From a bacterium (GTDB lineage Bacteria > Joyebacterota > Joyebacteria > Joyebacterales > Joyebacteraceae), in the NCBI GenBank assembly GCA_025774545.1, contig JALGVU010000004.1, positions 2,130-66,129 on the forward strand: a stretch of DNA of 64,000 nucleotides, written 5' to 3'. A program made the translations under genes and the position numbers. The notes beneath the pieces were generated by a model. It saw only the letters and a program-made list of their open reading frames with translations, did no database searches and was not told the DNA's origin. Every line of letters starts with the position of its first letter. The stretch's first letter is position 1. Below are positions 6,557-55,028 of the stretch, piece after piece.

Positions 6557-7918
6557 TCACCCTTCCGGGCCGAGTCGTCGGACCACGACGACCGTCATGT
6601 CGTCGGACGCCGTGCCCGGGCCGGCGAAGGAGTCCGCCTCCGTGATGAGCACCGACGCCATCACGCGCGCCGGCGCGCCGCGGGTTCTCGAGGCGGTCTC
6701 GATGATCCTCGCCTCGCCGAACGGCTCGTCTCCGTGCATCGCATCCGTGAGGCCGTCGGTGTAGATGATCAGGTAGTCGTTCGGCTCGATGTGAGTCCTT
6801 CCCTCGACGTACGTGATCCCCTCGAAGGTCCCGACGACCGTGCCGCCCTCCATCAGCCGCTCCACCTCGCCGGTCGCTCGCATGAGGAGAGGGGGATTGT
6901 GACCCGCGTTGACGTACGTGAGGGGCCCCTCGGGATCGAGCACGCCGTAGAAGAGGGTGGCGAAGTTCTCGGGCTCGGTGCTGCGGCACAGCGAGGTGTT
7001 CGCGCGCGCGATGATGGCGGCGATCGAGTAGATGTTCTCCACGTGCGATCTGAGCGTGCCCTGCAGCGACGCCGCGAGGAGGGCAGCCGGGACGCCCTTG
7101 CCGGACACGTCCGCGACCGCCACGCCGAGGTGGCGGTCCGGCAGCTCGAGGTAATCGAAGAAGTCCCCGCTGATCGTCTGGGTCGGGAGGTTCATCCCGG
7201 TGATCTCGTAACCCGGGACCTCCGGATCGGCGTCGGGGAGCAGACGCTCCTGAATCGTCCGGCCGAGATCGAGCTCGCGCTCGAGGCGGCGGCGGCTGGC
7301 GGCCTCCTCCTTGGCCCGGATGGCGTTCGCGTGGTTGCGCGCGTTGATGATCGCGACGCTCGCGACGCTCGCGAGCGCGGAGAGGAAGTCGCGGTCCCTC
7401 TCGCTGAACGCGTCGAGCTTCGGGCTCTGAACGTCGAAGACGCCGACCACCTTGCCCCGGAACACGAGGGGAACGACGAGCTCCGACTTCGCGCCGATGA
7501 GCCCGACCAGGTAGCGCTCCTCCCTCGAGACATCAGGCACGATCAGCGCCTCGCCGGTCTCCGCCACCCGCCCCGTCACGCCCTTGCCCACCGCCAGCTC
7601 GATCTCCTGAACCATACTCGGCGGATACCCGTACCGAGCGGCCACCCTGAGCCGCTGCTTGTCCCGGTCGATCAGGAGAATCGTGCAATACTCGAACCCC
7701 AGGAATCGGTGCGTGAGATAGAGCAGACGTTCGAGCACAGTCTCGAGGTCGAGCGTCGACACGATCGTGCGGACCGCTTCGAGCAGCGTCTCGTGCTCGA
7801 TACGGAGGCCCGCGTCGCCGTCTCTCTCTCGCGCGTGGTCGGGCGGTCCCCCGCCGCTGTGCTCGTCGTTCACGTCGCCGTCCTTTCGAGGCGCCTTCCG
7901 TTGCCTCCGACATGCCAA
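6557..7918 (-). CDS. GAF-domain sensor fused to PP2C/SpoIIE-type serine phosphatase (RsbU-like)
   Basis: N-terminal GAF-like region; C-terminal PP2C motifs (ISGDFFDY ... GVAVADVSGKG ... IIYTDGLTDA ... DDMTVVVV). Confidence 0.7.
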   Translation of the reverse strand: MACRRQRKAPRKDGDVNDEHSGGGPPDHARERDGDAGLRIEHETLLEAVRTIVSTLDLETVLERLLYLTHRFLGFEYCTILLIDRDKQRLRVAARYGYPPSMVQEIELAVGKGVTGRVAETGEALIVPDVSREERYLVGLIGAKSELVVPLVFRGKVVGVFDVQSPKLDAFSERDRDFLSALASVASVAIINARNHANAIRAKEEAASRRRLERELDLGRTIQERLLPDADPEVPGYEITGMNLPTQTISGDFFDYLELPDRHLGVAVADVSGKGVPAALLAASLQGTLRSHVENIYSIAAIIARANTSLCRSTEPENFATLFYGVLDPEGPLTYVNAGHNPPLLMRATGEVERLMEGGTVVGTFEGITYVEGRTHIEPNDYLIIYTDGLTDAMHGDEPFGEARIIETASRTRGAPARVMASVLITEADSFAGPGTASDDMTVVVVRRLGPEG

Positions 7919-8013
7919 GTCCCCAGAATCTAGCAGCTGCGCGCGCCGCCCACAAGATCTAAGCCCGGGAGCGCACGACCTGGTACAATCGTCGGGACGA
8001 GAACGGAGGGAAC

Positions 8014-8898
8014 TTGCGTCTTCAGGCGAAGGAGCTCCGCGACAGGGCGAGTCGGCTCGACCGGCTGGGTGATCCCTGCCGGTTGTGTCCGCGTGCCTGC
8101 GGCTCGCGGAGGGGCGCCGGTGAGCTGGGGGCGTGCGGGGCGACGCTCGAGGTCGAGGTGGCGAGCTACGGACCGCACCACGGCGAGGAGAGCGTGCTCG
8201 TCGGCCGCCGAGGATCCGGGACGATCTTCTTCTCCCACTGCAACCTCAGGTGCATCTTCTGCCAGAACTACGACATCAGCCATCTCGGACGAGGCCGCCC
8301 GACCACGCCGGACGATCTCGCCGGCATGATGCTCGAACTCGCTTCCCTCGGGTGCGCCAACATCAACCTCGTGACGCCGACGCACTACGCGGCGGGCATC
8401 GTGGCGGCCCTCGCCCTGGCCGCCGACCGGGATCTCGCGCTCCCCATCGTCTACAACTGCGGCGGGTACGAGTCGGTCGAGGTGCTGCGCCTGCTCGACG
8501 GGGTCGTCGACGTCTACATGCCCGATGCGAAGTTCGCCGATCCGGTCGCGGCCGCGCGCTTGAGCGGCGCACCCGACTATCCCGAGGTGATGCTGGCGGC
8601 GCTCCGTGAGATGCAGCGCCAGGTCGGCGACCTCGCCGTGGGCGACGACGGGCTGGCGACGTCGGGACTCCTCGTGCGCCACCTGGTCATGCCGGGGAAC
8701 CTCGCCGCGAGCGACGCCGTGCTCGAGCGGCTGGCGAGCCAGGTGTCGTCCAGGCTCTCCGTCAACGTCATGTCCCAGTATCGTCCCTGTTTCCGGGCCG
8801 TCGGCGCCGAGGGGCCCGTCGGGAGGGCCGTCACGAGGCAGGAGCACAGGGAGGCGGTTCGGCTGGCCAGGGAGCTCGGCCTGCGGATCGTGCCTTAG
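8014..8898 (+). CDS. radical SAM enzyme, PflX / pyruvate formate-lyase activating enzyme-like family
   Basis: CNLRCIFCQN (CxxxCxxC) radical-SAM cluster motif, ~290 aa, PflX-like spacing; TTG start in ORF track. Confidence 0.7.
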   Translation: MRLQAKELRDRASRLDRLGDPCRLCPRACGSRRGAGELGACGATLEVEVASYGPHHGEESVLVGRRGSGTIFFSHCNLRCIFCQNYDISHLGRGRPTTPDDLAGMMLELASLGCANINLVTPTHYAAGIVAALALAADRDLALPIVYNCGGYESVEVLRLLDGVVDVYMPDAKFADPVAAARLSGAPDYPEVMLAALREMQRQVGDLAVGDDGLATSGLLVRHLVMPGNLAASDAVLERLASQVSSRLSVNVMSQYRPCFRAVGAEGPVGRAVTRQEHREAVRLARELGLRIVP

Positions 8899-8932
8899 GT
8901 CCGACCGTGCCCTCGGCCCGGCCGATCTCGCG

Positions 8933-9021
8933 CCCCAGGCCAGTCCGATCCTGGTGCTGGTGCCCCAGGCCAGCCCAATCCAGGTGCTGGTGCCCAGGCG
9001 CGAGCCCAATCCTGGTGATGG
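8933..9021. repeat. 3 x ~30-nt imperfect tandem direct repeat (CCCCAGGCCAGyCCrATCCwGGTGCTGGTG)
   Basis: Read directly: three contiguous copies immediately downstream of the radical SAM stop; no spacers, so not CRISPR. Confidence 0.6.
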
Positions 9022-9084
9022 AGCCTCAGGACCTTAGTGTGTCGCGCCTGGCAGATGCGTCGGTGAATGCTCGTCAGACCGATA

Positions 9085-9119
9085 CTTGACATGTTGTTTG
9101 ATATGTGGTACTCTTGAGT
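9085..9119 (+). promoter_or_regulatory. sigma70-like promoter: TTGACA (9085-9090), 17-nt spacer, TACTCT (-10)
   Basis: Perfect -35 hexamer and TAxxxT -10 in a locally AT-richer stretch ~95 nt upstream of a small ORF with a strong RBS. Confidence 0.4.
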
Positions 9120-9211
9120 TGAGTCGAGGAACTGCCCCGAGACCCGGGGAAGCTCGGAACGTTGGACACCCGGGCCGGCCGACAAAAAGCACCCGCAAGG
9201 AGCGAGCAAAC

Positions 9212-9400
9212 GTGAGCGCCACCGCGAAAACACTTGGGATCGTCGTTCCCGTCCTGATCGCGACCACGTTCTGCCTGACCGTGCCGTTCATCATTATCGT
9301 GGCGGACGCGGCGGTGCTCCTCGCTGCGATTCTGATGTTCGTCGCGGAGCGCATGGAAGCCGCTCGCGTCGTCGACGAGGGTTACGACACCATCGAGTAG
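9212..9400 (+). CDS. small hydrophobic membrane protein (62 aa), GTG start
   Basis: AAGGAG RBS 9 nt upstream of GTG; product MSATAKTLGIVVPVLIATTFCLTVPFIIIVADAAVLLAAILMFVAERMEAARVVDEGYDTIE has two predicted TM helices. Confidence 0.45.
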   Translation: MSATAKTLGIVVPVLIATTFCLTVPFIIIVADAAVLLAAILMFVAERMEAARVVDEGYDTIE

Positions 9401-9576
9401 ACCACGCGCTCCATCGAGGCTCAACATGAACGGCGCTCGGACCGGTCGTGACCGGCTCGGGCGCCGCTTCTCGTGTTCGTCCGCTCGGCGGCCCTTGGCG
9501 CTCGAGGTTCGTCCTCGATCGCCCGCGACCACCGTCCGTCTCGTCCGACCCGCCGCCGGCCCGTCGGGGTGAGCGC

Positions 9577-9879
9577 CTACCTCCCTCTCCTCTTCCGCAC
9601 CGCACCGAGCTTGCCGGCCATCGTGAGCTCCTTGTCCCGACGATCGTCGATGACGACCGTCGTCAGGACTCTCACGACGTGCTCCCCGAAGGTGGACTCG
9701 TGCATGCGCGCGATCGCCTCGAGGATCTCCCTGAGATCTCCTTCAATCGCGGTTCCCATCGGATTGAGCTCGAAGCGGAGCCCCGTCGACTCCAGCACGT
9801 CCAGGCAGTGGGCGACGTGCTCGCTGATGCTCGCGCTCGACGTTCCTACCGGAACCACGCTCACCTGAACAACAGCCAT
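9577..9879 (-). CDS. MTH1187/YkoF family protein (DUF77; thiamine/ligand-binding ferredoxin-like fold)
   Basis: N-terminus MAVVQVSVVPVGTSSASISEHVAHCLDVLESTGLRFELNPMGTAIEG matches the MTH1187 family signature; 100 aa. Confidence 0.55.
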   Translation of the reverse strand: MAVVQVSVVPVGTSSASISEHVAHCLDVLESTGLRFELNPMGTAIEGDLREILEAIARMHESTFGEHVVRVLTTVVIDDRRDKELTMAGKLGAVRKRRGR

Positions 9880-9958
9880 GACCGTTTCCTCCCGCGCGTT
9901 CCACGGACGGAGCCGGAGAGGGCGCCGACACGGTGGTCCGGCGCGCGCCGCGGAGCCG

Positions 9959-10204
9959 TCAGTGTCCCTCCTCCTTGTCCACGACGAGGTTGGTCACCGT
10001 TCCCGTGACTCCCTCGATCGTGCGAAGCTGGTTCAACGTGAGATCGAGAAGCTCGTCGAAGGTCTCCGCCTCCACGAGGGCGATGATGTCCTGGTCGCCG
10101 CTCGTGAGATCGGCGGTCTTGACCTCGCGGCGTTCCAGGAGGGTGTCCCTCACCTCCCGCTCCTTCCCGGCGGCGACGTTGATCTTCACGTATGCTCGTG
10201 CCAC
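9959..10204 (-). CDS. stand-alone Lrp/AsnC C-terminal (RAM) ligand-binding domain protein, ~81 aa (GTG start)
   Basis: ARAYVKINVAAGKEREVRDTLLERREVKTADLTSGDQDIIALVEAETFDELLD resembles the AsnC-type effector domain; AAGGAGG RBS 5 nt before GTG at 10204. The ORF-track ORF extends further upstream to 10318. Confidence 0.5.
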   Translation of the reverse strand: MARAYVKINVAAGKEREVRDTLLERREVKTADLTSGDQDIIALVEAETFDELLDLTLNQLRTIEGVTGTVTNLVVDKEEGH

Positions 10205-10338
10205 TTGTGCCTCCTTGAACTCCGTCACAGGCGTCGTTTTCACCGTTCCGGTTTCGGGGCAGCCGATGCGCCCGTCTCGTGCCGCGGACCGCGGGCCCGC
10301 GGGAACAACGCCGAGCATCTACCAAAAGCGAGTCTCTG

Positions 10339-11163
10339 TCAACCTCGCGCCCGCTTGACGAATTCAAAACGTTCCGCGCGTATGTCGGTCACGAGTACCC
10401 TGTCGACGAGTTCGCCGGTCTCGGAGAGGATCGCCATCGCGATCTCGAACGCGGCATCCCTCGATTCCGACGGCACCTTGTTCAGAATCGGGCGGACGGT
10501 CGCCCCGGCCGGCACGCGCTTCATGCCCCCATCTGGTGCGGCCACGACGCGCGCCACGAGGTCCGGAGTCACCCGATCCCCCTCGGCGTAGGCGCGAAGG
10601 AGCTCTGGCCGGTGGACGGTGCCGTCGTCGATCCGGCGACCCAGGACGTCGAGCCCCACCATCGGGCAGACGATGGTCGCCCCTCCGGGAATCACGGGCT
10701 CGTGCTCGGCCGGCGCCTTGAGCGACCGCTGGCGCGAGCCGTCGGCTTCGACCAGGGTCGCGTCGGGCCCAACGGCCGCGGCGAGGGCCTCGAGGGCCGC
10801 GGGGGCGACGCCGACGAACTTCCCATCGGAGCCAAGCGCACTCGCCACGAAGAGGCTCCGATGCACGGCGAGATCCCGGCTGACGCGCGCGGTGCAGGCG
10901 CTTCCCACCGTTCTCGGCAGCGGGGGGACGTTCGCCACTCCGTCCGGCGGCCGGCAGGACGGACACAGGGCGACCGGCATGGCCTCCGCAACGCTCTGCC
11001 CGACCTTCGTCGTCGTCGACGCGAGCACTCTCCAGCCCACGCCGGCGAGTTCCTCGACGAGCCTCAGAAGCGCGGTCGTCTTCCCCCCTCCACCGACGAG
11101 CGCGACCACGTCGCCGCGGCCGACGCCGATCGCCTCGGAGAGGAGCGCGACTCGCGTCACTCT
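10339..11163 (-). CDS. YqeC-like protein (TIGR03172-type, probable selenium-dependent hydroxylase accessory protein family), GTG start overlapping upstream stop
   Basis: GDVVALVGGGGKTTALLRL and VLASTTTKVG motifs typical of YqeC. The ORF-track ORF 10339..11865 is an artefactual in-frame extension into the GGDEF gene. Real start is GTG at 11163 in a GTGA start/stop overlap with the upstream gene. Confidence 0.5.
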   Translation of the reverse strand, partial: RVTRVALLSEAIGVGRGDVVALVGGGGKTTALLRLVEELAGVGWRVLASTTTKVGQSVAEAMPVALCPSCRPPDGVANVPPLPRTVGSACTARVSRDLAVHRSLFVASALGSDGKFVGVAPAALEALAAAVGPDATLVEADGSRQRSLKAPAEHEPVIPGGATIVCPMVGLDVLGRRIDDGTVHRPELLRAYAEGDRVTPDLVARVVAAPDGGMKRVPAGATVRPILNKVPSESRDAAFEIAMAILSETGELVDRVLVTDIRAERFEFVKRARG

Positions 11164-12515
11164 TGCCGGATGTCCTTCCAGAAGACGGTCCTGTTCTTGC
11201 CGGTCCGCTTCGCCTCGAAGAGGGCAATGCGGTCGGCCTTGTCGATGAGGTCGCTCCTCGACTTCGCATCGAGCGGATAGAGCGCCCCACCGATACTGAT
11301 CGTGACGTCGCGCGTCGGGTCGTCGGACAGGCCGGTAACGAACCGCTGGGTCTCCACGTTGCTCCGGACACGCTCGGCTACCATCCTCGCGGTCTCGCGC
11401 GTCACGTCGGGGAGCACGAGCACGAACTCCTCCCCGCCGTAGCGCGCCACGATGTCGACCTGTCGAGCGTTCTCGGTCAGGATGCGTGCGACCTGCCTGA
11501 GGACGCTGTCGCCCGCCGCGTGGCCGAGCGTGTCGTTGATCTGCTTGAAGTCGTCGAGGTCCATGACCAGGAGCGCCAGCGCGTTTCCCGACCGCTTGCA
11601 GCGCTCGATCTCCCGCGTCAGCTGCTCGTCGAAGTACCGTCGGTTGTGGATCTCGCTCATGTGGTCGACGAAGATCAGCTCCTCGACCTCGAGTCTCCGC
11701 TTGATCAGGCCGCCCGCGAACTCGGCGATGAACTCGATGATGAACAGGTCCTCCGGCCCGTACGCTTCCGGACGCTCGGTCCACAGCTCCAGCACGCCGT
11801 AGACGTAGGCCTCGGCCTTGAGCGGAGCGACGACGAGCGAGCCGCCCACGCCGTGGGGGAAGCACCTCGCGTGGCGCTCGTCGGCCTGGACGTCGGGGAC
11901 GTGGAGCGAGCGCCCGCTCTCCTCCACCTCGGCCTTGAGGGGATCGGGGGTGATCCGCTCCTCATCCGGCCAGCGGTACACGTCGTCCAGCTCGCTCAGG
12001 GTCCGCGCCGACGAGTTCGACAGGCCTCGCGACATGAACACGGCGATGCGATCGTAACCGACTGCTTCGTGCAGCAGATCGTACAGACGATCGAGGGCGC
12101 CCACGAGATCGCTCCGGCGGCTCGAAGCGGCGACGGCGTCGAGGAGGGCCAGCGGAAGCGCGGGTGGCGCGCTGGGTGCGAGAGGCTTGGCGGCGGCCGA
12201 GGGCTCGCCCGCGGGCGGCTCCGGCACGGACGGCTCGGTCTGCTCCACCTGCGCCAGGGTGATCGAGATCGTGTCGAGCGAGGCGAGATCGCGGTAGCTG
12301 AGCCGAACGCGGCCGTCGGCCTCCTCTCGTCCGACGCGTTCGATCCGTCCCATCTCGCACAGACGCTCGAGCAGCCTCACTGCGCCCTCGCGAACCGCGC
12401 GTTCGTCGGCCTCGGCGAGGAGCGCGCGATAGAGATCGAGGCCCTCACGATCGAGCGCCCCCACCGGAATCAGCCGCTCGAGAAGCTCGAAGGATGTCAG
12501 CCTTCTTTTCCTCAT
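11157..12515 (-). CDS. GAF-GGDEF diguanylate cyclase (ORF extends to 12584)
   Basis: C-terminal GGDEF domain with RYGGEEF active site, D-x-LGH and KQINDT motifs; N-terminal GAF-like region. Confidence 0.8.
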   Translation of the reverse strand: MRKRRLTSFELLERLIPVGALDREGLDLYRALLAEADERAVREGAVRLLERLCEMGRIERVGREEADGRVRLSYRDLASLDTISITLAQVEQTEPSVPEPPAGEPSAAAKPLAPSAPPALPLALLDAVAASSRRSDLVGALDRLYDLLHEAVGYDRIAVFMSRGLSNSSARTLSELDDVYRWPDEERITPDPLKAEVEESGRSLHVPDVQADERHARCFPHGVGGSLVVAPLKAEAYVYGVLELWTERPEAYGPEDLFIIEFIAEFAGGLIKRRLEVEELIFVDHMSEIHNRRYFDEQLTREIERCKRSGNALALLVMDLDDFKQINDTLGHAAGDSVLRQVARILTENARQVDIVARYGGEEFVLVLPDVTRETARMVAERVRSNVETQRFVTGLSDDPTRDVTISIGGALYPLDAKSRSDLIDKADRIALFEAKRTGKNRTVFWKDIRQE

Positions 12516-12661
12516 TTCGTCCGTCCCAGTGCCGTGTCGTGGCCCCGGCTGCAATGCAATCCGGCACGTTTCTTTCAACAACAATCATAGACCATCGTCA
12601 AGAATCAGTCAAAGGGGCGGTCGCTCGAACGCCTCGTTTTCCTCTTGCGCGGAGGGCCCCG

Positions 12662-14224
12662 ATGGGGATAATGTCGTCTATCGTGAAACACGCAGGGCTG
12701 CTGCTCGCACTCATTGGGCTCGTGAGTCTTGCCGGCTGCAGTGGTACCGGCTCCACGGTGTCCCGGACACGAAGCTCGGACGTCACTGACACGTCCGAGA
12801 GGACCACCGTGGGAGACTCCCTCGACGCGGCCGACCGGCTCTACCGGGAGGCCCTCGCCCACTACGTCACCGATGCCTGGGACGAGGCCGCGCCTCTCCT
12901 CGAACGCGCCCTCGTGCTCCTCGACGGCGCGATTCCCGAGACCGAGGAGGGCGAGTCCGCCAGGGCCTCTCTCCAATCGCGCGTCTGCTACTTCCTCGAG
13001 ATCGTCTCCGATCACTGCGACGCCGTCCCCGATGCCGAAGGTGGCGCGGCCGGCGCCGACGCGCCCGTCGTGTCGGTCTCGCGCCGGAGCCGCGAGAGGA
13101 CGGAACGGACGAACTCGATCACGATCGTCCGGAACGACCGAGTCGAGTCGTGGATCAAGTACTTCCGGACGAGGGGCAAGAACGACATGACCCGGTGGCT
13201 CGGGCGGACGACACGCTACCGTCCAATGATCGACGAGGTTCTCGAGGAGTACGGCCTTCCTCACGAGCTCTTCTACCTTGCGATGATCGAGAGCGGGCTC
13301 AACCCGAACGCCTACTCGTCCGCGCACGCGGCGGGGATGTGGCAGTTCATCTCGAGCCGCGCGCGCATGTACGAGCTCCGGGTCGACTGGTGGGTCGACG
13401 AGCGGCGTGATCCCGAGAAAGCAACGCGGGCCGCGGCCGCCTATCTGAGCGATCTCTACGACATGTTCGGGTGCTGGGAACTCGCGCTCGCGGGATACAA
13501 CTCGGGAGAGGGACGCGTCATCCGCGCCCGGAAGAAGCACCCGTCGTGTCCGGACTACTGGTGCCTCGACCTTCCCCGGGAGACCGAGAACTTCGTCCCG
13601 AAGTTCATGGCGGCCGTCGTGATCGGCTCCGACCCCGAGGCGTACGGGTTCTCGGGGTGGAAGGAGGAACGGCCGCTCGAGTACGAGCCCATCGAGGTCA
13701 GGAGCGCCTTCGACCTCGACGTGATCGCGGAGGCCGCGGGCACGAACCGCGACGCCATCAAGCAGCTGAACCCAGCGCTTCGGCGTTGGTGCACCCCGAG
13801 CGACGCAGCGTGCACCGTCTACGTGCCTGCTGGGCGGGGCCCTCAGTGCCTCGCAGAGCTTGCCAAGGTCCCGGCCAGCGAGCGTGTGGCGTATCAGCGG
13901 CATCGCATCGGCCGGGGCGAGACGCTCTCTGACATCGCGGACGCCTACGGCACCAGCATCAAGGCGATCGCCTCGTTCAACGGTATCAGCAATCCCCACC
14001 GCATCCGGGCGGGCGAGCACGTCGTCATCCCCACGGGGGCGACCGGGAGCGGCGACGTCTACGCGGGGCTCGACGAGTCGCGGAGCTACAGGGTTCGCCG
14101 CGGCGACACGGTGTCATCGATCGCGAGGAAGTTCGGCAAGCGCACGAACAGCTTGCTTCGCGCGAACGGGCTCGGGTGGAGATCCAGGATCTACCCGGGC
14201 GACACACTCAAGATTCCGATGTAG
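12662..14224 (+). CDS. mltD: membrane-bound lytic murein transglycosylase D-like lipoprotein (SLT domain + 2 LysM)
   Basis: Lipobox LVSLAGCSG after the MGIMSSIVKHAGLLLALIG signal; SLT catalytic motif ESGLNPNAYSSAHAAGMWQF; two C-terminal LysM repeats (GETLSDIA..., GDTVSSIA...). Confidence 0.8.
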   Translation: MGIMSSIVKHAGLLLALIGLVSLAGCSGTGSTVSRTRSSDVTDTSERTTVGDSLDAADRLYREALAHYVTDAWDEAAPLLERALVLLDGAIPETEEGESARASLQSRVCYFLEIVSDHCDAVPDAEGGAAGADAPVVSVSRRSRERTERTNSITIVRNDRVESWIKYFRTRGKNDMTRWLGRTTRYRPMIDEVLEEYGLPHELFYLAMIESGLNPNAYSSAHAAGMWQFISSRARMYELRVDWWVDERRDPEKATRAAAAYLSDLYDMFGCWELALAGYNSGEGRVIRARKKHPSCPDYWCLDLPRETENFVPKFMAAVVIGSDPEAYGFSGWKEERPLEYEPIEVRSAFDLDVIAEAAGTNRDAIKQLNPALRRWCTPSDAACTVYVPAGRGPQCLAELAKVPASERVAYQRHRIGRGETLSDIADAYGTSIKAIASFNGISNPHRIRAGEHVVIPTGATGSGDVYAGLDESRSYRVRRGDTVSSIARKFGKRTNSLLRANGLGWRSRIYPGDTLKIPM

Positions 14225-14346: not shown

Positions 14347-14452
14347 GCGCAGCCCCGGATCCTCAGTGAGGGTCCGGGGCTTCCTCTTTGGCTCTCGGAA
14401 TGCCGCGAGTTCGAGGCTCAGCGCAGCGGCCTGGCCACCCCTCCGCGTCTTC

Positions 14453-15784
14453 CTAGTGCTCGGCGGTCTGACGGACCGGCCTCAGGACGGCCGTCCGCTT
14501 CAACTCGCCCGCCGGGACGTCGGAGACGATGGCGCGGATCATCGCGTCGTGGTTCTCGATCGGCTCCCAGAGCGACCAGTTGTTCCTGTAGCTCTTGAAG
14601 TCGATCGGGTACGTGTCGTCGAGTCCGATCACGGGGTTGCTTCGATGCAGCCACTCCATCCCAACGAAGAACTGCTTGTCGGGGAAGTGCGTGTCGTTGG
14701 AGATGTTCACCGCGTTCGGGATCACCAGCTCGAGCCACGCCTCCTCAGGGTAGAGCTCGCCGGGGTTCAGTCCCTCGTTGGCCTCGACGCCGGGGAGTAT
14801 GTCCTGGTTGGGACGCCAGACCAGCGCCCGGAACGGCTTCGTGCTGGGCGCCTCGGGGTCGTTCGGGTTGTCCACGTTGTCGTTCATGATGAAGAAGTGG
14901 ATCCCGATCACGTAGTTCGCCCAGGTCGGGGCCTGGAAGAGCGTGGCGAGCTTCATCCCGCGCTGCCCGGTCGTCTGGTTGTCGATCGAGCCGAACGAAC
15001 CGTCGTCCCACGTGAGCGTGGTGTCCTTGCCCTCGGCCACCCAGTCGATGCTGACCTGCTCGGACGAGACGTTCCCCGCGTAGTCGAAGGCCTCGACGTA
15101 GTACCGGATGAGCGAGTCAGGGTTGTTCACGGTCAGTGGCGGTGTTGTCAGCGGCACCCAGAACCGCACCGCATCCGGCCCCGGCGGGGCCTCGAAGGTG
15201 TCGTAGACCGTCGGCAGGAACTCGTTGATGCCGCCGTAGCGGACCCTCGTCCCGTCTGCCGTCGTGTTCGTTATCCCGACGAGCGTCAGTGCCGGGAGAC
15301 CCGTCGACCAGTTGCCCGATATCGGATCGAGCTCGGCGCCCTCGATCGGCGGCTCGAAGGCGACCGGAGGCGCCGTCATGTCGAGGAGGATGTCGATCTC
15401 CACGTTCTCGCTCGCCCGGTTGCCGTAGAGGTCGGTCACAGCAGCCGAGATCGTCTTGGCCCCCTCATCGCCGAGGTGGACACCGACGACCGTGAAACGC
15501 CCCAGCCCGCCGTCGTCGGGGACCGCCGGTGACGCCAGGGCGGTGCCCTTCGACTCACCGTTCACCATGATCTCGACCGTCGCACCGACCTCGGCGCGGC
15601 CGCGGACATTGATCGTTTGGCTGCTCAGGCTCGCACCGTCCTCCGGATTCGTGATCATCGTTCCGGTCGGCGGATCGTTGTCCGAACTCACGCCGGTCTT
15701 GCTGCAGCCAGCCGCGAGGACGAGCCCCACCGCCGCCGCGGTGATCGCGAGCATCGCGAGCCACCTTGTTCGTCCGTCTCTCAT
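14453..15784 (-). CDS. hypothetical secreted lipoprotein (443 aa)
   Basis: Signal peptide + lipobox LAAGCS; Thr/Asn/Asp-rich beta-rich sequence without recognisable catalytic motif; real gene on the strand opposite to the spurious ORF 14324..15532. Confidence 0.5.
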   Translation of the reverse strand: MRDGRTRWLAMLAITAAAVGLVLAAGCSKTGVSSDNDPPTGTMITNPEDGASLSSQTINVRGRAEVGATVEIMVNGESKGTALASPAVPDDGGLGRFTVVGVHLGDEGAKTISAAVTDLYGNRASENVEIDILLDMTAPPVAFEPPIEGAELDPISGNWSTGLPALTLVGITNTTADGTRVRYGGINEFLPTVYDTFEAPPGPDAVRFWVPLTTPPLTVNNPDSLIRYYVEAFDYAGNVSSEQVSIDWVAEGKDTTLTWDDGSFGSIDNQTTGQRGMKLATLFQAPTWANYVIGIHFFIMNDNVDNPNDPEAPSTKPFRALVWRPNQDILPGVEANEGLNPGELYPEEAWLELVIPNAVNISNDTHFPDKQFFVGMEWLHRSNPVIGLDDTYPIDFKSYRNNWSLWEPIENHDAMIRAIVSDVPAGELKRTAVLRPVRQTAEH

Positions 15785-15889: not shown

Positions 15890-16984
15890 CTAGAAGCTGT
15901 AGGACGCCGACACCCTGTGACTCGAGTCCAGATACTCGTGTTTGCCGAACGCGTAGTTTATCGTGAAACCGCGATAGCCCACACCCGCTCCCGCGGTCAA
16001 CTGACCCATCGCAAGTCCCGCGCGGACGCTCACGTGATCCCCGTGTCCGTAGGTGAACTCCACGCCGTAGTGCGTGTCGGCCGAGATCGGGCCGACGTGG
16101 TACTCGTCGGCGGTGAGACGATTCTCGAAGCGGAAGTCCGCGTCGGCGGCGAGGATGATCCTCGCGTCCATCGTCTCGATCGGGCGCTCGTACGCGATCC
16201 CGAGTTTCGCCGTGGGCATGATCGACTCGCGCTCCTTCGTGTTCCACACGAGGAACGTGGTCGTCACGTCCTGGAGATTGGCTCCGAGCGTCGTCCCCTC
16301 CCAGAGCTCGTACTTGGCTCCGAGATCGAAGCCCACGCCGTAGCACGAGAAGCTGCCGACGCTCTTCCGCACGATCTTGAGGTTCCCGCCGAGCCGCAGC
16401 CTGTCCGATGTTCTCCTGCCGTAGCTCACCAGGAGGGCCATCTCGGCGTCGCTCTCCCAGTTGATCCGCGTCGGGTCGTAGATGATCCGCTCCCCGTCCT
16501 CCTCGAAGTCGGTGAACGGGATGTCGTCGACCGAAAGCCTGACCACGGTCACGGCGATGGCCGAGTCGTCGGACAGCGGGTGCACGTACGCCCCCGTGTC
16601 GTAGTCGACGACACTGCCGAAGGTCTCCGAGTGCATGAGTTGCACCGACCGGGTCGGGACGTCGGTCACGCCCGCCGGGTTCCAGTATCCAGTGGTGACG
16701 TCGTCGGAAACGGCGACGAAGGCGCTCCCCATGCCGAGCGCGCGGGCCCCGACTCCGTGCGTCAGGAACTCCCCCGCGTACTTGTTCGCTGCCGCGCCGG
16801 GAAGCGCAGAGGCGAGAAGCACGGCGGCGACGAGAATGAGCGGAATCGTAGGTCGGGCCGCCCGCCGGACAAGCCCGCGAACAGGCCTCTCTCGTTCTCT
16901 CGAGATCATCAGATCCCCTTCTAGCATGCTCGCATCCGGTTGTAAAGTCGAAAGGGAGCCCCGCCCGCGTGCGCGGGCCATCAT
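15890..16984 (-). CDS. PorV/FadL-like outer-membrane beta-barrel protein
   Basis: GARALGMGSAFVAVSDDVTTGYWNPAGV N-terminal motif shared by PorV (LptO) and FadL families; C-terminal aromatic residue (F); ATGA start/stop overlap with upstream small ORF; alternative internal starts at 16927/16909. Confidence 0.55.
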   Translation of the reverse strand: MMARARGRGSLSTLQPDASMLEGDLMISRERERPVRGLVRRAARPTIPLILVAAVLLASALPGAAANKYAGEFLTHGVGARALGMGSAFVAVSDDVTTGYWNPAGVTDVPTRSVQLMHSETFGSVVDYDTGAYVHPLSDDSAIAVTVVRLSVDDIPFTDFEEDGERIIYDPTRINWESDAEMALLVSYGRRTSDRLRLGGNLKIVRKSVGSFSCYGVGFDLGAKYELWEGTTLGANLQDVTTTFLVWNTKERESIMPTAKLGIAYERPIETMDARIILAADADFRFENRLTADEYHVGPISADTHYGVEFTYGHGDHVSVRAGLAMGQLTAGAGVGYRGFTINYAFGKHEYLDSSHRVSASYSF

Positions 16985-17277
16985 CGCTCGAGCTCCCGCC
17001 TCAAGAGCTCCGCCCGCACCCGCTCGTTCCTTCTGCCGGTCCGGACGATGTTCCTCCTCACCCTGTTCAGACGGGTCGTGAGTCTCATCGCTTCAAAGAG
17101 GTCGTGCTCTTCGTCCGAAAGGAACTTGAGGTTGCCCCGGTGCCACCGGAGCCTCTCCTCGAGGGCCGCGCCGTACTCGTGCATGTAGACCAGGGTCGAC
17201 GCCGAGACCCGCGCCAGCCGCGCGTCCTCCTCGTCCAGTCTGACCTCGGCCTGGGGAGCCTCGAACACGATTCCCAA
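16981..17277 (-). CDS. small hypothetical protein (98 aa) between the C25 peptidase and the PorV-like gene
   Basis: ORF in operon context with 4-nt overlap to the downstream gene; no recognisable domain. Confidence 0.35.
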   Translation of the reverse strand: MGIVFEAPQAEVRLDEEDARLARVSASTLVYMHEYGAALEERLRWHRGNLKFLSDEEHDLFEAMRLTTRLNRVRRNIVRTGRRNERVRAELLRRELER

Positions 17278-17290
17278 CGATCCCTCCCAC

Positions 17291-20200
17291 CTACCGGACG
17301 AGGATCATCTTGCGCGTCTCCTCGTGTTCGCCGACCGTGAGCCGGTAGAGATAGACGCCCGCTGCGACGTCGACGCCCAGCTCGTCCGTGCCCTCCCACG
17401 TCACGCTGTGCTCGCCGGCCCGCACGGGACCCCGCACGAGGGTCCGGATGAGGCGTCCCTGGACATTGTAGATCGCTAAGCTCGCCTCGGCCTCCCCGCG
17501 CATCGAGAACGTGATCGAGGTCGACGGGCTGAACGGATTCGGGCAGTTCTGGTGCAGGAGGGCCATCTCGCCGACCTCCTCCTCGCCGCCCGCGACACCG
17601 GTCCCCGACGGGGCCACGGCCGTCCCGACCGCGACGTCGTCGATGTAGACCCCCTCCTCGACGTCCGCGCCGTCGCTCGTGAAGCGGAACCTGACCTTGA
17701 GCGCGTCGCCGTTCATGTCTGGCACCAGGTAGCGGTACTCGAGCCAGTCGTTCCCGATCGATCCCAACATGTCGAGGGCGCCCCCGCTCCCGATGAAGTC
17801 GAGGGTGTCGACCGGGTCGCTTCCCGAGAGGAGTTCGACGAAGAAGCCGTCCTCGTGGTAGATCGGGAACTCGTACCAGCACCAGAACGACAGCTCCATG
17901 TTCGGGCCCGCGGTGAATTCGGGCGAGTCCAGATGGCAGTTCATGTCGTCGGCGTACTCCCACGTGTCGGTCGAGCCGCAGTACCAACTCGTCGCTCCCG
18001 AATGCGCTCTGTGCGACGTCAGGGTCCAGAGGTCCGACTCGCCTCCGTGATTCCATCCGGCCGCCCCGTCCTCGAAATCGTACGCCCGACCGACGTCGCC
18101 GACCGCGATGACGAGCGTGTCGCTGCTCGTTTCTCCCTCCGCCGTCTCGGTCGCGAACGACAGCTCCGGGAAGTGCGGCACCGGAATCCCGTGGGCGAGC
18201 TGGATCTCGAAGACCGCCTGGGCGAGCCCACCGCTCGGGATCCGCCCGAGTGAGGCGCTCCCGCCGGTCACGAACACGTCGGGATCGAGGCTCGCCAGGG
18301 TCGCCTCCGCCGCCGACGCGTCGGCCAGGCCGCCGTTCGTGACCTCGACCATGAGCTTGAGAATCTCGCCGGGTTCGGGCACACCGTTGCCGTTGCCGCC
18401 CCACGCATCGTCGACGTCGTAACCGCCGGTCGACAGGACGGCCGCCGCGACGGTGAGCGCGATCGTGCCCCCCCACGAGCCGCGGCCGCCGGCCGACACG
18501 ATGTCGACGTCGAGGTCGACGACGTGGCCGTCGGCGCAGCCCTCGACGATGCTGATCGAGAAGGCCGGCTCGCCCACGGCCGTCTCTCCGCCCGGAATGT
18601 CCGGATAGGCCGACTCGCCGGCGAGCACCTGCGCCCAGGGGTCGTCGGTCGTGATCGTCACGTCGACGCCGGTGGCTTCTTCCGTTCCGAAGTTCCTGAC
18701 CGTGAGGGAGAGGTCGACGGTCTCGCCGGGGCCGGCGAGTCCGTCGCCGTTGCCCGACGCGTCATCGATCGCGAGTCCCTCCCCCCTCAGGTAGACGCCC
18801 GACATGGCGACGGGCACCGTCGTTTCGTAGGGACGGCAGTCGGCCGCCGTGACCGTGAGCTCGAGGGTCTCCGGGACGGCCGTCTCGACGGCCATCGTCA
18901 CGGTTCCGTCGGAGCCGGTGTGCCCCCTTCCGTAGAGGTCGACGCCGTTGCGGAGACAGACGAGGGCGTCGGCCACGGGTCCTGTCGACGTCCGGACGGT
19001 CGCGTCGAAGATGAAGGTCCCCGCCACGACCGAGTGTGGGTGTTCGACGCTCAGAAGCGCCGGCTCGCGCGTCCAGATGGGCATCTCCGGGTCGCCCAGG
19101 AGATTCAGCTCATACTGGTGCCAGCGGTAGACGTTCTCTGACTGCGAGAACGGTATCAGGACGGCCTTGGCAGCCGCGAGGACGGCCCCCGCGTGGCGCA
19201 CCTCCTCGACAAAGAGGAAGCGGTAGAACTCCTGCATGAAGCGCTCGGAGTATCCGAAGCCCGGGTTGCCGGGGGACGCCCATCCGTAGCGGTCGTTCCC
19301 GATGAAGGCGACCGCGCCGCCTCCGGGGTTCCTGAGGAAGTGCTCCGCGATGCAGCTCTCCTCGAGGTCGAACGCGGCCGGCCAGCAGCCGATCGAATAG
19401 ACGACCGGCAGTCCCATCGCGTTCGTGAGGGCGTCGGCGTGCGAGCGGTTCATGTAGCCCTCGCCGCAGCCCATCACGGTGTACCAGGCGTGGCCGCTGT
19501 GCAGGAAGTGTCCCTTCCCGGCGTTGATTGCCTCGACGACGCTCGTGACGGACTCGTTTCCGAGCGTCTCGTAGAGCTTGGTGATCGGGTCGAATCGAGG
19601 CGGCACGGAGTCCCGGTCGATCCGGTTCAGGGCGATCCCCGAGTCCGTGAAGGGATCGTCCCACAGGATCTCGGCCGCCATGAGCATGTCCAGCTCGACG
19701 CCCGACGCCGAGGCCCTCTCGTAGTCGAGCACCTTCCCGACGAAGACCTCGGCCTCCTCGACGCTCGTGACCGGCGCGCGGCCGACGAAGACCTCCGGGT
19801 AGAGATCGACGTCGTCGTCGGTCTCACCGTACGTGTCGTCGCCGTCGAGGTTCCAGTCGCCGTCGAGGTCGGCGTAGTAGAGGTCGGCGGCGAGGTCGTC
19901 ATCCAACGCGTGGCCTCCGGCCTCGCAGGTCATGGCGTACGCGTGGCGCGCGGGCACCCAATCGGTGTCGCCTCCCAGGAGGATCCAGACCGAGCCCCAC
20001 GTCTCGTACGCGTCGGCGATGAAGGCCCTGATTCGCTCCTGGGTGTCGTCACCCGCGTACGTCGCGTCGATCCACTGCACAGTCACGATCGTCGCGGGCA
20101 CGCCCTTCTGCGACTTCCAGTCGGCGAGCGGAGCGAACGCCGCGGCATGGGCATCGTCGGCGATGATGACGTACTCGATGTCGTCGGGATCGAGGAGGGT

Positions 20201-20905
20201 CTCCTCGAGATCGAGCGAGGCCCTGGCCGGTCCGAGGCCCGAGACGTCGGTGAGAACAGCCCTGGCGAACCGGCCGGATTCGTGTTTCGCCGCGAGTCCC
20301 GGCGCCGCGGGGCCGTCCTCGTATCGGAGCCTCAGCACGACGCGGCTGAAGAACCGCAGGCGTCCGGTGTCTGGCAGGAACTGGAGCGGGTAGACGGAGA
20401 CGCCGACCGTCTGGCTCGCGCCGACTCTGGTGATCGATGACACCTCGGCGACGGCCGCCGGATACGCGGCGTGCCCTCCGTAGATCGTCTGATTCGGACG
20501 CGCGAACCGCCAGGACGGAAGGTCGATCCCCGGAATCGGGAGAATCCGAGGGCGTTGGGCCGGCCACGGCGTGACCCGTTGGAGTCGCTCGCGGCTCTCG
20601 GCGCTCGTGATCTCGAGGGTGACGAACGAGGCGCCGGGCGGGAGAGCGATCGTCACGGCCCTGACCGGAAGCTGCGGGCTTCCTACCTCACGCGTCAGGT
20701 CGCATGCGGCGAGCGTCACGACGTCGTAGCCGTTCCGACGGGACGTCTGGATGTCCTGCTCTCGGAACGCGACCGCGTGCTCGATGACGCCTGCGGACGC
20801 CACGCCCGGAAGCGCGACCGCGATGAGCACCGCCGTCAGGAAGCCGTATCGTCTCAACTGACTCGTCACGTCGGACACCTCCTCGGCGCCGGAACGCCTG
20901 GGCAC
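17291..20905 (-). CDS. gingipain-like C25 family cysteine peptidase with multiple Ig/CARDB-like domains and a T9SS-type (FlgD-Ig/Por secretion tail-like) C-terminal sorting domain
   Basis: Signal peptide; C25 catalytic-region similarity (HFLHSGHAWY His region, VVYSIGCWPAAFD Cys region); C-terminal LHQNCPNPFSPSTSITF...GVYLYRL motif characteristic of T9SS C-terminal domains. Confidence 0.7.
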   Translation of the reverse strand: MPRRSGAEEVSDVTSQLRRYGFLTAVLIAVALPGVASAGVIEHAVAFREQDIQTSRRNGYDVVTLAACDLTREVGSPQLPVRAVTIALPPGASFVTLEITSAESRERLQRVTPWPAQRPRILPIPGIDLPSWRFARPNQTIYGGHAAYPAAVAEVSSITRVGASQTVGVSVYPLQFLPDTGRLRFFSRVVLRLRYEDGPAAPGLAAKHESGRFARAVLTDVSGLGPARASLDLEETLLDPDDIEYVIIADDAHAAAFAPLADWKSQKGVPATIVTVQWIDATYAGDDTQERIRAFIADAYETWGSVWILLGGDTDWVPARHAYAMTCEAGGHALDDDLAADLYYADLDGDWNLDGDDTYGETDDDVDLYPEVFVGRAPVTSVEEAEVFVGKVLDYERASASGVELDMLMAAEILWDDPFTDSGIALNRIDRDSVPPRFDPITKLYETLGNESVTSVVEAINAGKGHFLHSGHAWYTVMGCGEGYMNRSHADALTNAMGLPVVYSIGCWPAAFDLEESCIAEHFLRNPGGGAVAFIGNDRYGWASPGNPGFGYSERFMQEFYRFLFVEEVRHAGAVLAAAKAVLIPFSQSENVYRWHQYELNLLGDPEMPIWTREPALLSVEHPHSVVAGTFIFDATVRTSTGPVADALVCLRNGVDLYGRGHTGSDGTVTMAVETAVPETLELTVTAADCRPYETTVPVAMSGVYLRGEGLAIDDASGNGDGLAGPGETVDLSLTVRNFGTEEATGVDVTITTDDPWAQVLAGESAYPDIPGGETAVGEPAFSISIVEGCADGHVVDLDVDIVSAGGRGSWGGTIALTVAAAVLSTGGYDVDDAWGGNGNGVPEPGEILKLMVEVTNGGLADASAAEATLASLDPDVFVTGGSASLGRIPSGGLAQAVFEIQLAHGIPVPHFPELSFATETAEGETSSDTLVIAVGDVGRAYDFEDGAAGWNHGGESDLWTLTSHRAHSGATSWYCGSTDTWEYADDMNCHLDSPEFTAGPNMELSFWCWYEFPIYHEDGFFVELLSGSDPVDTLDFIGSGGALDMLGSIGNDWLEYRYLVPDMNGDALKVRFRFTSDGADVEEGVYIDDVAVGTAVAPSGTGVAGGEEEVGEMALLHQNCPNPFSPSTSITFSMRGEAEASLAIYNVQGRLIRTLVRGPVRAGEHSVTWEGTDELGVDVAAGVYLYRLTVGEHEETRKMILVR

Positions 20906-21841: not shown

Positions 21842-21930
21842 TGGTGCCCGGAGCGAGACTCGAACTCGCACAGGCATACGCCCACCACCCCCTCAAGATG
21901 GCGTGTCTACCAGTTCCACCATCCGGGCAC
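21842..21930 (-). tRNA. tRNA-Leu (anticodon GAG), 89 nt including CCA
   Basis: Reverse complement folds as a cloverleaf: acceptor GTGCCCG/CGGGCAC, Leu-type D-arm GGTGGAACTGGTAGAC, anticodon stem CCATC/GGTGG with loop TTGAGGG (U33, GAG 34-36), long variable arm, T-arm GAGTTCGAGTCTC, terminal CCA. Confidence 0.85.
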
Positions 21931-37379: not shown

Positions 37380-38192
37380 TCAGCGTGACCCGTACGGCGA
37401 GCCCGTGATCAGCTCGGTCCCCTCGGGCCTTCGCAACACGAACTCCCCCGCCGGGACCGTCACGTCGTAGCTCGACGCGTGCATCGTGTAGGTCGTCCGA
37501 TCGCCGGTGCTGGCGAAGGCGACGATCCGTGTGACCGACCGCGCGTTGGTGTCGATCGACACCTCGACGCGGACCGGCTCGCTGAAGGCGGTCGACGGCT
37601 TGAGGATCAACGTCGTGATCGAGCCCCGGGGCTCAGCCGCGAAGGGCGCGGTCCTGTCAGGCTCGAACTGCCTGAGCAGACGGGCCGGGTCGAGCGCGAC
37701 GTCGGCGGAATCGACCGCCGCGACGAAGAACTGGCTCGTGGCCGGCGAGTAGACCCACAGGCTGTCTTGAGCGACGACGATCCTTCCGCCGTCGGCATAG
37801 CGTATCGAGATGTTTCCCGGACGTTCGAGCAGAAGCACGCCCGACACCGACATCGTGGAGTCGGCGAGCGCCCAGTAGCTGTCCTGGGTGAATCCGATCC
37901 GGTACGAACGAGCGTCGTCGTATCGCTCGATCACGCGCGCGATCAGCTCGCGCGCCCGGGCGACGTCCGGCGACGTCTCGGCGCTCGTCGCGGTCACGGA
38001 GGGAGCGTCTGCGATCAGAAGGGCGGCCGTCGCCGCGGCGTTCCCGGGCGCCGCGCCTGCGCTCGTCGCGGCCGCGGTGAGCAGAAGCAAGAAGGCGGCC
38101 GCTGCCAATCCGGCCGCCGCAAGTGCCTTTCGCGCGGACCGCCACCCGGGCGCTCCGCACCATGTGCTATCGCTCTTCGTCCTCGTCAGCAT
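37380..38192 (-). CDS. lolA: LolA-like outer-membrane lipoprotein carrier protein. The ORF-track N-terminus (to 38390) is an out-of-register read through the ftsK acidic tail; real start is ATG 38192
   Basis: Signal peptide MLTRTK...LLLLTAAATSAGA followed by a LolA-like beta-rich domain; conserved ftsK-lolA synteny; start overlaps ftsK 3' end by 26 nt. Confidence 0.55.
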   Translation of the reverse strand: MLTRTKSDSTWCGAPGWRSARKALAAAGLAAAAFLLLLTAAATSAGAAPGNAAATAALLIADAPSVTATSAETSPDVARARELIARVIERYDDARSYRIGFTQDSYWALADSTMSVSGVLLLERPGNISIRYADGGRIVVAQDSLWVYSPATSQFFVAAVDSADVALDPARLLRQFEPDRTAPFAAEPRGSITTLILKPSTAFSEPVRVEVSIDTNARSVTRIVAFASTGDRTTYTMHASSYDVTVPAGEFVLRRPEGTELITGSPYGSR

Positions 38193-48827: not shown

Positions 48828-49358
48828 ATGATGAGAAGGCCACCGGCGCTCCTCGGAGCCCTGCTTCTCCTGACGCTCATCGTCACGGCGGGCTGCTACA
48901 CGGTCCTCAGGCATCCGACGGGGACCGACGTGGTTCAGGAGGACAGCTACTACAGGAGTTGCGCCGACTGTCACGCGGACGCGCAGTTCTACCATGCGTA
49001 CTCCCATCCCTACTACCGCTACGGACGCTCGCACTACCGGTGGAACGGCTACTACGGTTCGCCCTGGTGGTACGACTACTGGTGGTACGAGGACTACGAG
49101 GATGGCGACTCGCCCGACGTCGAGCGCGGCTCGCGGCACCTCTGGCACAAGGGAGGATGGGCCTCGGACGGCTGGGGCCTGAAGGGCTCCACGTCGACGT
49201 CGACGCCGCCTCCGGCGGCCGCGCCCGCGTCTCCGCCGTCCCAGCCACAGAATGAGGGCGGAAAGCGCACCGAGGAGAAGAAGCACGAGGAGAAGAAGGA
49301 GAAGGAGAGCGAGAAGAGCTCACGGCAGCTTTGGAGACCCAGGAAGAAGGGGTCCTAG
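48828..49358 (+). CDS. Tyr/Trp/His-rich small lipoprotein with Lys/Glu-rich tail (ORF starts 48732; real start at the MMRRPPALLG signal)
   Basis: GGAGAGGGGG RBS; lipobox LIVTAGC; aromatic-rich segment CADCHADAQFYHAYSHPYYRYGRSHYRWNGYYGSPWWYDYWWYEDYEDGD. Confidence 0.45.
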   Translation: MMRRPPALLGALLLLTLIVTAGCYTVLRHPTGTDVVQEDSYYRSCADCHADAQFYHAYSHPYYRYGRSHYRWNGYYGSPWWYDYWWYEDYEDGDSPDVERGSRHLWHKGGWASDGWGLKGSTSTSTPPPAAAPASPPSQPQNEGGKRTEEKKHEEKKEKESEKSSRQLWRPRKKGS

Positions 49359-49378
49359 AGACGAGGAGGAGTGAAGCG

Positions 49379-54718: not shown

Positions 54719-54723
54719 GCCGC

Positions 54724-55014: not shown

Positions 55015-55028
55015 GGCTGCCTCCGCGC

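Follow-up and report, generated by a model that had tools for sequence, protein, structure and literature searches.

A gingipain-type C25 peptidase and a PorV/PorQ-family barrel in a conserved four-gene operon outside Bacteroidota

A stretch of 64,000 nucleotides from a Joyebacterota genome (assembly GCA_025774545.1, contig JALGVU010000004.1; hereafter the window) carries a four-gene transcription unit encoding a C25 cysteine peptidase that ends in a type IX secretion system (T9SS) sorting domain, a protein of 98 amino acids, an outer-membrane barrel of the PorV/PorQ family and a lipoprotein. The arrangement is conserved outside Bacteroidota, and its peptidase and barrel belong to subfamilies that fall short of the PorU, PorV, PorQ and PorV2 tests. 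It is a variant of a known theme – a protein with a T9SS C-terminal domain (CTD) together with its cognate PorV-like barrel – and not a new kind of system. We read the operon as encoding a surface protease, the type-A CTD cargo of a type IX-like pathway, along with the barrel that would serve it; we give this reading an even chance, and set it below against the possibility that the peptidase is itself a sortase.

Gene order and conservation

The original prediction, made from the letters of the sequence, described an operon of three open reading frames (ORFs) on the minus strand: 17291..20905 (1204 aa, GTG start), 16981..17277 (98 aa, TTG) and 15890..16984 (364 aa, ATG). All three ORFs are present, as are the motifs on which their reading was based (LHQNCPNPF, YLYRL and GARALGMG...DD...YWNPAG), and each has a GC content of 0.86–0.90 at third codon positions, the codon-position pattern of real genes, in a window of ~68% GC. 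The linkage of the three is conserved and not accidental, but the unit is longer than was supposed, given that a fourth gene belongs to it. The components of the operon are as follows.

17291..20869, minus strand: gene 1, C25 peptidase of 1192 aa; GTG start with ribosome-binding site GAGGAGG; Peptidase_C25 E=7.7e-63
16981..17277, minus strand: gene 2, 98-aa protein; TTG start with a GGGAGG site, 13 nt past the peptidase stop
15890..16984 (364 aa) or 15890..16909 (339 aa), minus strand: gene 3, PorV/PorQ-family barrel; NF033709 116.7 bits against a cutoff of 90
14453..15784, minus strand: gene 4, lipoprotein of 443 aa with lipobox LAAG followed by C; 105 nt past the barrel, order conserved
14351..14381, unstranded: GC-rich hairpin with a 14-bp stem between the convergent gene 4 and mltD; likely a bidirectional terminator closing the operon

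Two start codons bear on how these genes are spaced. For the peptidase, the GTG at 20869 lies 7–8 bases downstream of GAGGAGG and yields a protein of 1192 aa that is 100% identical to a public entry (P0001); this, rather than the GTG at 20905, is the likely start. For the barrel, a second ATG at 16909 (Met26) is preceded by GAAGGGG and gives a protein of 339 aa, with a predicted signal peptide that ends at ...PGAAA, before NKY. Because barrel homologues range from 308 to 364 aa and are mostly 320–345 aa long, this ATG is plausible as the true start, and the 339-aa form appears more likely than the 364-aa form that gene callers use. The choice matters for the ATGA overlap that had been reported immediately downstream of the peptidase: an overlap at 16981–16984 does exist, but it joins the stop of gene 2 to the start of the longest barrel reading, whereas the peptidase and the 98-aa ORF are 13 nt apart. 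With the shorter barrel the second interval becomes 71 nt. A search upstream of the operon for a sigma-70 consensus promoter found none.

All four proteins have their closest homologues in metagenome-assembled genomes (MAGs) named Candidatus Eisenbacteria or 'Effluviviaceae'. The Eisenbacteria phylum is incertae sedis at NCBI; one paper places it as sister to Joyebacterota, itself a member of the Fibrobacterota–Chlorobiota–Bacteroidota (FCB) superphylum. A profile scan of species-representative genomes returned 367 relatives of the peptidase, and synteny was tested by tblastn on 88 loci. Where the peptidase shares 52% identity or more – in about 24 loci, all from one Eisenbacteria clade – the genes run tpiA, secG, (nth), C25, small ORF, barrel, lipoprotein, and mltD lies on the other strand; this order holds in every such locus whose contig is long enough. 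The barrel is 65–74% identical across these operon-linked loci. At peptidase identities of 46% and below, the adjacent barrel, the small ORF and the lipoprotein are missing in every locus tested. Loci of this second kind, with no barrel beside the C25 gene, belong to Zixibacteria, Latescibacterota, KSB1, Ignavibacteria, Gemmatimonadota, Cloacimonadota, Calditrichaceae, WOR-3 and a further three MAGs of Eisenbacteria.

The two main components thus have separate histories. The peptidase family, ~1190 aa long, is conserved over its full length and in all its domains at ~40% identity across phyla, and several genomes carry at least two C25 paralogues, none of them beside a barrel. Being multi-copy and unlinked to barrels elsewhere, it behaves as an exoenzyme family of FCB-related candidate phyla, which is what would be expected of cargo enzymes. 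The barrel, for its part, behaves as a widely conserved envelope protein: relatives at 41–48% identity in KSB1, Cloacimonadota and other Eisenbacteria match the same NCBIfam profile and stand alone beside mutS, yicC-gmk-rpoZ or lapA-lapB. Pairing of C25 and barrel beyond the Eisenbacteria clade was looked for and not found in the tested loci; the distant relatives of the barrel, in turn, lack a C25 neighbour. The joining of the two, with two lineage-specific genes, in a single operon is a feature of one clade.

These distributions temper the suggestion that a cargo–PorV pair is unusual in a non-Bacteroidota genome. Only the pairing is restricted to a single Eisenbacteria clade, for each of the two gene families occurs widely among FCB candidate phyla. 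A TXSScan survey of 2016 recorded T9SS in Bacteroidetes only, but SprA has since been described as the 'FCB-specific T9SS translocon', missing only from Chlorobiota (PMC12611786), and several non-Bacteroidota FCB phyla have been named as likely holders of the system (PMC11285876). This literature treats SprA and T9SS as a trait of the FCB superphylum, and T9SS-type genes are not surprising here in themselves. Our literature search found no paper on T9SS in Eisenbacteria and none on PorU2/PorV2.

The peptidase and its sorting domain

The large protein is a gingipain-type C25 cysteine protease, as its first description had it. Its domains are arranged as follows.

20792..20869, minus strand: predicted Sec signal peptide, residues 1-26, ending at ...ALPGVASA, before GV; from sequence reading, with a model helix at residues 3-19
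20225..20791, minus strand: gingipain-like prodomain, residues ~27-215; Propeptide_C25 (PF08126) 24.3 bits, above its cutoff of 22
19079..20173, minus strand: C25 catalytic domain, residues 233-597; His460 codon at 19490-19492, Cys495 codon at 19385-19387
18110..19072, minus strand: Ig-like domain (residues ~600-690) and two beta-sandwich domains (~694-920); all-beta in the model, with weak CARDB and NPCBM_assoc matches
17627..18079, minus strand: MAM-like or 'choice-of-anchor J' jelly roll, residues 931-1081; NF038128 2.3e-5 and InhA-like_MAM 7.6e-4, both below cutoff
17294..17563, minus strand: T9SS type-A / FlgD-Ig-like CTD, residues 1103-1192; TIGR04183 and FlgD_ig above cutoff, seven strands in the model

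Evidence for this identity comes from sequence families, from the catalytic residues and from predicted structure. The Pfam model Peptidase_C25 (PF01364) matches with 213 bits against a cutoff of 23. His460 and Cys495, which align with His211 and Cys244 in the RgpB motifs YTGHGS and DVACVNGDF, are invariant in 34 family members from several phyla. When a profile of the family was compared with sequences in the PDB, it matched the catalytic domain of RgpB at 1.6e-24 and Kgp at 1.5e-11; the prodomain of Kgp (5mun) was matched at 9.4e-11 and that of RgpB (4ief_A) at 1.4e-9. The AlphaFold model (predicted local distance difference test, pLDDT, 78) has a beta-rich prodomain and an alpha/beta catalytic domain, and a low-confidence linker between the MAM-like domain and the CTD. 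In a Foldseek search with this model Kgp and RgpB come out on top (E ~1e-19 to 1e-20; target-normalised template-modelling scores, TM, of 0.73 for Kgp and 0.81 for RgpB), with the Ig-like domain included in both structural alignments, while PorU stands behind them at 2e-13.

The likeness to the gingipains extends over most of the protein. RgpB and Kgp – T9SS cargo of P. gingivalis and members of MEROPS family C25 – share with our peptidase a signal peptide, an N-terminal inhibitory prodomain, a caspase-like His/Cys domain, an Ig-like domain and a type-A CTD. Identity, however, is only ~19%; two extra beta-sandwich domains and the MAM-like domain, which is strongly conserved across phyla, precede the CTD; and the alignment puts Asp163, the S1 residue of RgpB, in a segment inserted there with respect to the peptidase. 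A further difference lies in gene order, in that gingipain genes are not known to be encoded beside porV. Variation in the C-terminal region is seen within the family as well: Zixibacteria-type C25 homologues (P0073, P0092, P0101 and others) carry a dockerin (PF00404) in place of the FlgD-Ig/T9SS CTD, so that the C25 enzyme body seems to be combined with differing anchoring modules in different members.

A T9SS sorting domain had been proposed for the end of the peptidase, and family models bear this out: TIGR04183 gives 29.9 bits against a cutoff of 23 and FlgD_ig 40.3 against 27 (E=3.1e-10), although the Pfam model Por_Secre_tail (PF18962) stays below its cutoff with 19.6 bits against 27. 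The domain keeps the conserved motifs PNPF, GVYLYRL and RKMILVR, LHQNCPNPF lying at 17531-17557 and YLYRL at 17339-17353. A type-A CTD is an Ig-like sandwich of seven strands and 70–100 aa, with conserved C-terminal motifs, at the very end of a protein exported by Sec, and the domain has just this form and position, in a protein with a predicted signal peptide.

How specific is this tag? An exhaustive search with the last 93 residues as query retrieved, at E<=1e-3, 281,243 cluster representatives. Among single-copy matches the nearest are 50–66% identical and strictly C-terminal, in proteins of 113 to 1289 aa; ten carriers include a subtilase, a dockerin-bearing beta-helix protein, propellers of the LVIVD and lactonase types, FG-GAP proteins and Ig-repeat proteins. 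Its presence on so many unrelated exoproteins is how a T9SS cargo tag behaves, and shows that the CTD of the peptidase is generic and not an unusual one. No other CTD-bearing ORF was found in the window; a further one is present in a locus of the same clade (L015). There is nonetheless a difference in how the domain is conserved. In the operon-linked clade pairwise identity is 62% for the CTD against 68% for the catalytic domain (a ratio of 0.91), the CTD being about as conserved as the MAM-like domain, while in CTD-bearing relatives elsewhere the figures are 44% and 64% (0.69). The higher relative conservation gives some slight support to an extra constraint on the CTD in the operon clade, such as might be imposed by a fixed binding partner.

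The barrel and the accompanying genes

The barrel is a member of the PorV/PorQ family with a FadL-type fold closest to PorV. It exceeds the cutoff of the family model NF033709 (see the list of genes above), as do seven relatives at 105–133 bits. None of the narrower equivalog models accepts it: PorV2 (NF052325) gives 192.7 bits against 325, PorQ (NF033711) 59.8 against 220 and PorV (NF033710) 29.2 against 250. PorV2 is the top specific model for the barrel and for all relatives tested (164–230 bits). When a profile of 38 barrel homologues was compared with all PDB sequences, PorV of F. johnsoniae was the sole significant match (1.5e-9). The predicted structure (pLDDT 84) has the FadL fold, with a helical segment of the N-terminus lying inside the barrel. 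A fold search with this model puts PorV in the substrate-bound translocon first (8gl6_F; 5e-12, TM 0.62/0.58), with 6h3i_F also among the top matches; TbuX, TodX and FadL follow closely (E 4e-10 to 2e-7, TMq 0.48–0.61), and the BamG chains 9hjm_F and 9n2d_B rank 31st and 35th (E ~1e-5, TM 0.47–0.50).

Two other identities were considered for the barrel and rejected. The original prediction had itself named FadL as the alternative that would undo it, and the barrel does not score as such: there is no match to Toluene_X (PF03349) at E<=0.01, and no FadL chain appears in the PDB profile search at E<=1. BamG falls away likewise, there being no match to NF053685 and its chains ranking far below PorV. 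FadL, TodX and BamG share with the barrel the fold and the N-terminal segment within it, without a match in sequence family and with a lower structural rank than PorV. The description of the barrel as PorV, the shuttle for T9SS cargo, is only partly sustained, however. It is of the PorV/PorQ family, but since it does not pass the PorV equivalog model and scores higher with PorQ and PorV2, the shuttle label applies to it by analogy and not by membership.

A second barrel of the same FadL/PorV superfamily is encoded in the window, at 49331-50683 on the plus strand (450 aa). It carries the N-terminal motif of the PorV family, and its best NCBIfam match is BamG, with 68 bits against a cutoff of 250. 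BamG is a FadL-like barrel that forms a subunit of the BAM (beta-barrel assembly machinery) complex of Bacteroidota and is conserved in FCB phyla (PMC12611786); the second barrel may be the BamG-like subunit predicted for these phyla.

Three loci from other genomes show relatives of the operon's barrel in further settings. In a Cloacimonadota locus (L007:4546-12265) a relative of 47% identity directly follows a CTD protein of 1325 aa, and its two neighbours on the opposite strand are a CTD protein and an M14 peptidase with a MAM-like domain; the proximity of barrel and cargo may therefore recur outside Eisenbacteria with other cargo. An Ignavibacteria locus (L047:759-1676, 7706-11035) has a barrel relative (41%) ~6 kb upstream of a C25 relative and is the sole non-Eisenbacteria locus with both in view. 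In another Eisenbacteria MAG (L089:9001-12621) glycosyltransferases are followed by a barrel relative (45%) and then by lapA- and lapB-like genes, a neighbourhood of lipopolysaccharide assembly which perhaps points to some connection of this barrel family with surface glycolipid.

The two remaining products of the operon match no Pfam family even at E<=1. The 98-aa protein is rich in Arg and Glu (20 K+R, 18 D+E; maximum hydropathy 0.5); no signal peptide or hydrophobic segment was found in it, and it is probably cytoplasmic. It is kept at the same position in ~20 loci at 47–66% identity, and on sequence reading gives the impression of a helix-turn-helix-like pattern, VS..TL.YM. In the lipoprotein the lipobox residues Gly26-Cys27 are invariant and there is a weak N-terminal Ig-like signal. 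Its homologues number only 73, all of Eisenbacteria type and all annotated as 'hypothetical'; a profile of them found no PDB relative, and the protein has no similarity to the peptidase.

Roles of the peptidase and the barrel

On the reading we favour, the protease would cross the inner membrane by Sec as a zymogen. After recognition of its CTD it would pass the outer membrane by way of a SprA-type translocon whose genes would lie elsewhere in the genome. Gene linkage and family analogy suggest that the co-encoded barrel binds the CTD and shuttles the enzyme to the cell surface, or docks it there; removal of the prodomain would activate the enzyme, which would go on to degrade extracellular protein. 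The lipoprotein is probably an envelope accessory of such a complex, and the 98-aa cytoplasmic protein may be a regulator. A review offers a precedent, in the proposal that particular CTD proteins are handled by cognate PorV-like barrels: PorU by PorV, PorZ by PorQ, and type-B cargo by SprF-like barrels (PMC10202324).

Several observations weigh against this reading. The binding of CTD to barrel is argued by linkage and analogy. Since relatives of the barrel at 41–48% identity sit alone in housekeeping neighbourhoods in other phyla, the barrel, instead of being a dedicated partner, may be the one general PorV-like protein of its lineage. Conservation of the peptidase over its full length at ~40% identity, together with a fixed site among core envelope genes, would also suit a component of the machinery. 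Finally, the T9SS route is an assumption: SprA, PorK, PorL, PorM, PorN, PorW and PorT are all absent from the 45 proteins scanned in the window.

A critical issue is whether the peptidase is cargo at all. A C25 protein with a CTD, encoded beside a gene of the PorV family, is also the signature of the PorU sortase, which the original prediction left out. PorU removes the CTDs of cargo and passes the cargo on to a surface glycolipid. The adjacency of porU and porV is typical of Bacteroidota, and PorU is the best named NCBIfam match for the peptidase, which raises the possibility of a porU–porV pair in place of cargo and shuttle. Orthology with PorU can be rejected: NF033707 gives 81 bits against a cutoff of 420, and among the 34 family members none does better than E=4.6e-34. 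To the PorU2 model (NF052324) the catalytic region scores 28 bits against a cutoff of 450; with the PorV2 score of the barrel, this leaves both proteins well below the cutoffs (450 and 325) of the putative 'PorU2/PorV2' type IX sorting system of NCBIfam, from which the barrel's top specific model comes. The PorU structure 6za2 is matched by the family profile through its CTD alone (2.4e-6), whereas the gingipains are matched through prodomain and catalytic domain, and by both the PDB profile and Foldseek the catalytic region is nearer the gingipains than PorU. Position beside a PorV-family barrel, a further mark of PorU, is found only in the Eisenbacteria clade at 52% identity or more. Nor does the CTD have the elongated form with an extra hairpin that is characteristic of the PorU that stays in place: retained CTDs of PorU and PorZ are ~96–108 aa long with an additional beta-hairpin, itself functionally dispensable, while short CTDs, of the size class of the ~88-aa, seven-strand domain modelled here, are the cleaved CTDs of cargo (PMC11285876).

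Absence of orthology does not settle function, and the C25 protein might be a functional equivalent of PorU – a CTD signal peptidase or sortase with the barrel as its PorV – the two forming a minimal attachment complex by which the CTDs of all other cargo would be processed. We consider this unlikely, though a serious contender. PorU, too, is a C25-family CTD protein that stays bound to PorV (PMC10202324); it is the best named NCBIfam match for all 34 family members, 32 of which also touch the PorU2 model. The conserved length of ~1190 aa with every domain in place, the locus fixed among cell-envelope housekeeping genes, and the rise in the CTD-to-catalytic identity ratio from 0.69 to 0.91 in the operon clade all fit a sortase. 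Against it stand the distance to PorU in score, in profile and in fold just described, the inhibitory prodomain of gingipain type, the short CTD that lacks the hairpin, and the genomes with two or more paralogues and no adjacent barrel. A more far-reaching version, which we regard as rather unlikely, is that a gingipain-type C25 protein with a prodomain took over the role of CTD signal peptidase or sortase in the Eisenbacteria clade, and perhaps also in further FCB candidate phyla, which may have no canonical PorU; with the barrel, the lipoprotein and the small protein it would then make up a minimal attachment module whose origin was independent of PorU-PorV-PorQ-PorZ. Distinctly unlikely, in our view, is that the barrel is a general PorV-like shuttle or outer-membrane housekeeping protein that lies next to one cargo gene by inherited order only. 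The solitary, orthologue-like relatives beside mutS, yicC-gmk or lapAB speak for this, as does the 50–66% identity of the peptidase CTD to the generic tag of other cargo; moreover, gene order in the clade is frozen all the way from tpiA-secG to mltD, which makes synteny alone a weak proof of partnership. But the spacing is that of an operon, with a possible ATGA overlap and a single terminator, the two lineage-specific genes occur only with the operon block, and the Cloacimonadota relative of the barrel is again flanked by CTD proteins. That the barrel is a transporter of hydrophobic compounds of the FadL/TodX type, or a BamG-type BAM subunit, with no part in protease secretion, is very improbable: TbuX, TodX and FadL do have its fold, BamG chains are matched too, and BamG is a FadL-like barrel kept in FCB phyla (PMC12611786), but neither family is matched in sequence, the PDB profile search points to PorV only, the BamG chains lie far lower in the fold search, and the BamG match in the window goes to the other barrel.

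Set beside the known pairs, the protease and its barrel show both kinship and divergence. In the attachment complex of Bacteroidota the C25 CTD protein PorU is likewise encoded next to a PorV-family barrel, which holds the peptidase's retained CTD (PMC10202324). Here the peptidase is nearer the gingipains, with a prodomain and a short CTD, the barrel is far from the PorV cutoff (29 bits against 250), two extra lineage-specific genes are present, and a PorZ/PorQ partner was not seen. PorQ–PorZ, and SprF/PorP-like barrels with type-B CTD proteins, provide a second parallel in which a PorV-like barrel is dedicated to one CTD protein, often from an adjacent gene (PMC10202324; see also PMC9143113). 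The present CTD differs in being of type A, the cargo in being a protease, and the barrel in belonging to another subfamily (PorQ 60 bits against 220).

The operon stands among genes for glycolysis, cell shape, competence, acetyl-CoA carboxylase and a microcompartment. Converging on it is an MltD-like lytic transglycosylase with two LysM domains (12494-14224, plus strand), whose position is kept in all clade loci that reach so far; just upstream of the operon's promoter region, flanked by secG and the endonuclease III-like gene, is a tRNA-Leu(GAG) gene (21842-21928, minus strand). Beside ftsK is encoded a LolA-like periplasmic lipoprotein chaperone (37380-38390, minus strand; 49.7 bits, below cutoff). 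LolA homologues are reportedly important for T9SS and gliding in Bacteroidota. The apparent microcompartment locus, at ~53473-60527 on the minus strand, comprises a class II aldolase, a shell protein of PduT/EutM type, an RnfC-like protein, a CoA-acylating aldehyde dehydrogenase (644 bits) and a PduL phosphate propanoyltransferase, along with several ORFs of 90–116 aa that are candidate shell proteins.

In public annotation the two main proteins already have names: 'C25 family cysteine peptidase' for one, 'PorV/PorQ family protein' for the other. Should the protease prove to be ordinary cargo, then the finding is a useful but unsurprising annotation; its significance rises if the peptidase replaces PorU in whole genomes. 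Experimental study of T9SS has been almost confined to Bacteroidota, and the operon offers a concrete pair with which recognition between CTD and barrel can be tested outside that phylum. It is also a candidate for how a widespread lineage of soil and sediment organises proteolysis at its surface, or the processing of CTDs itself.

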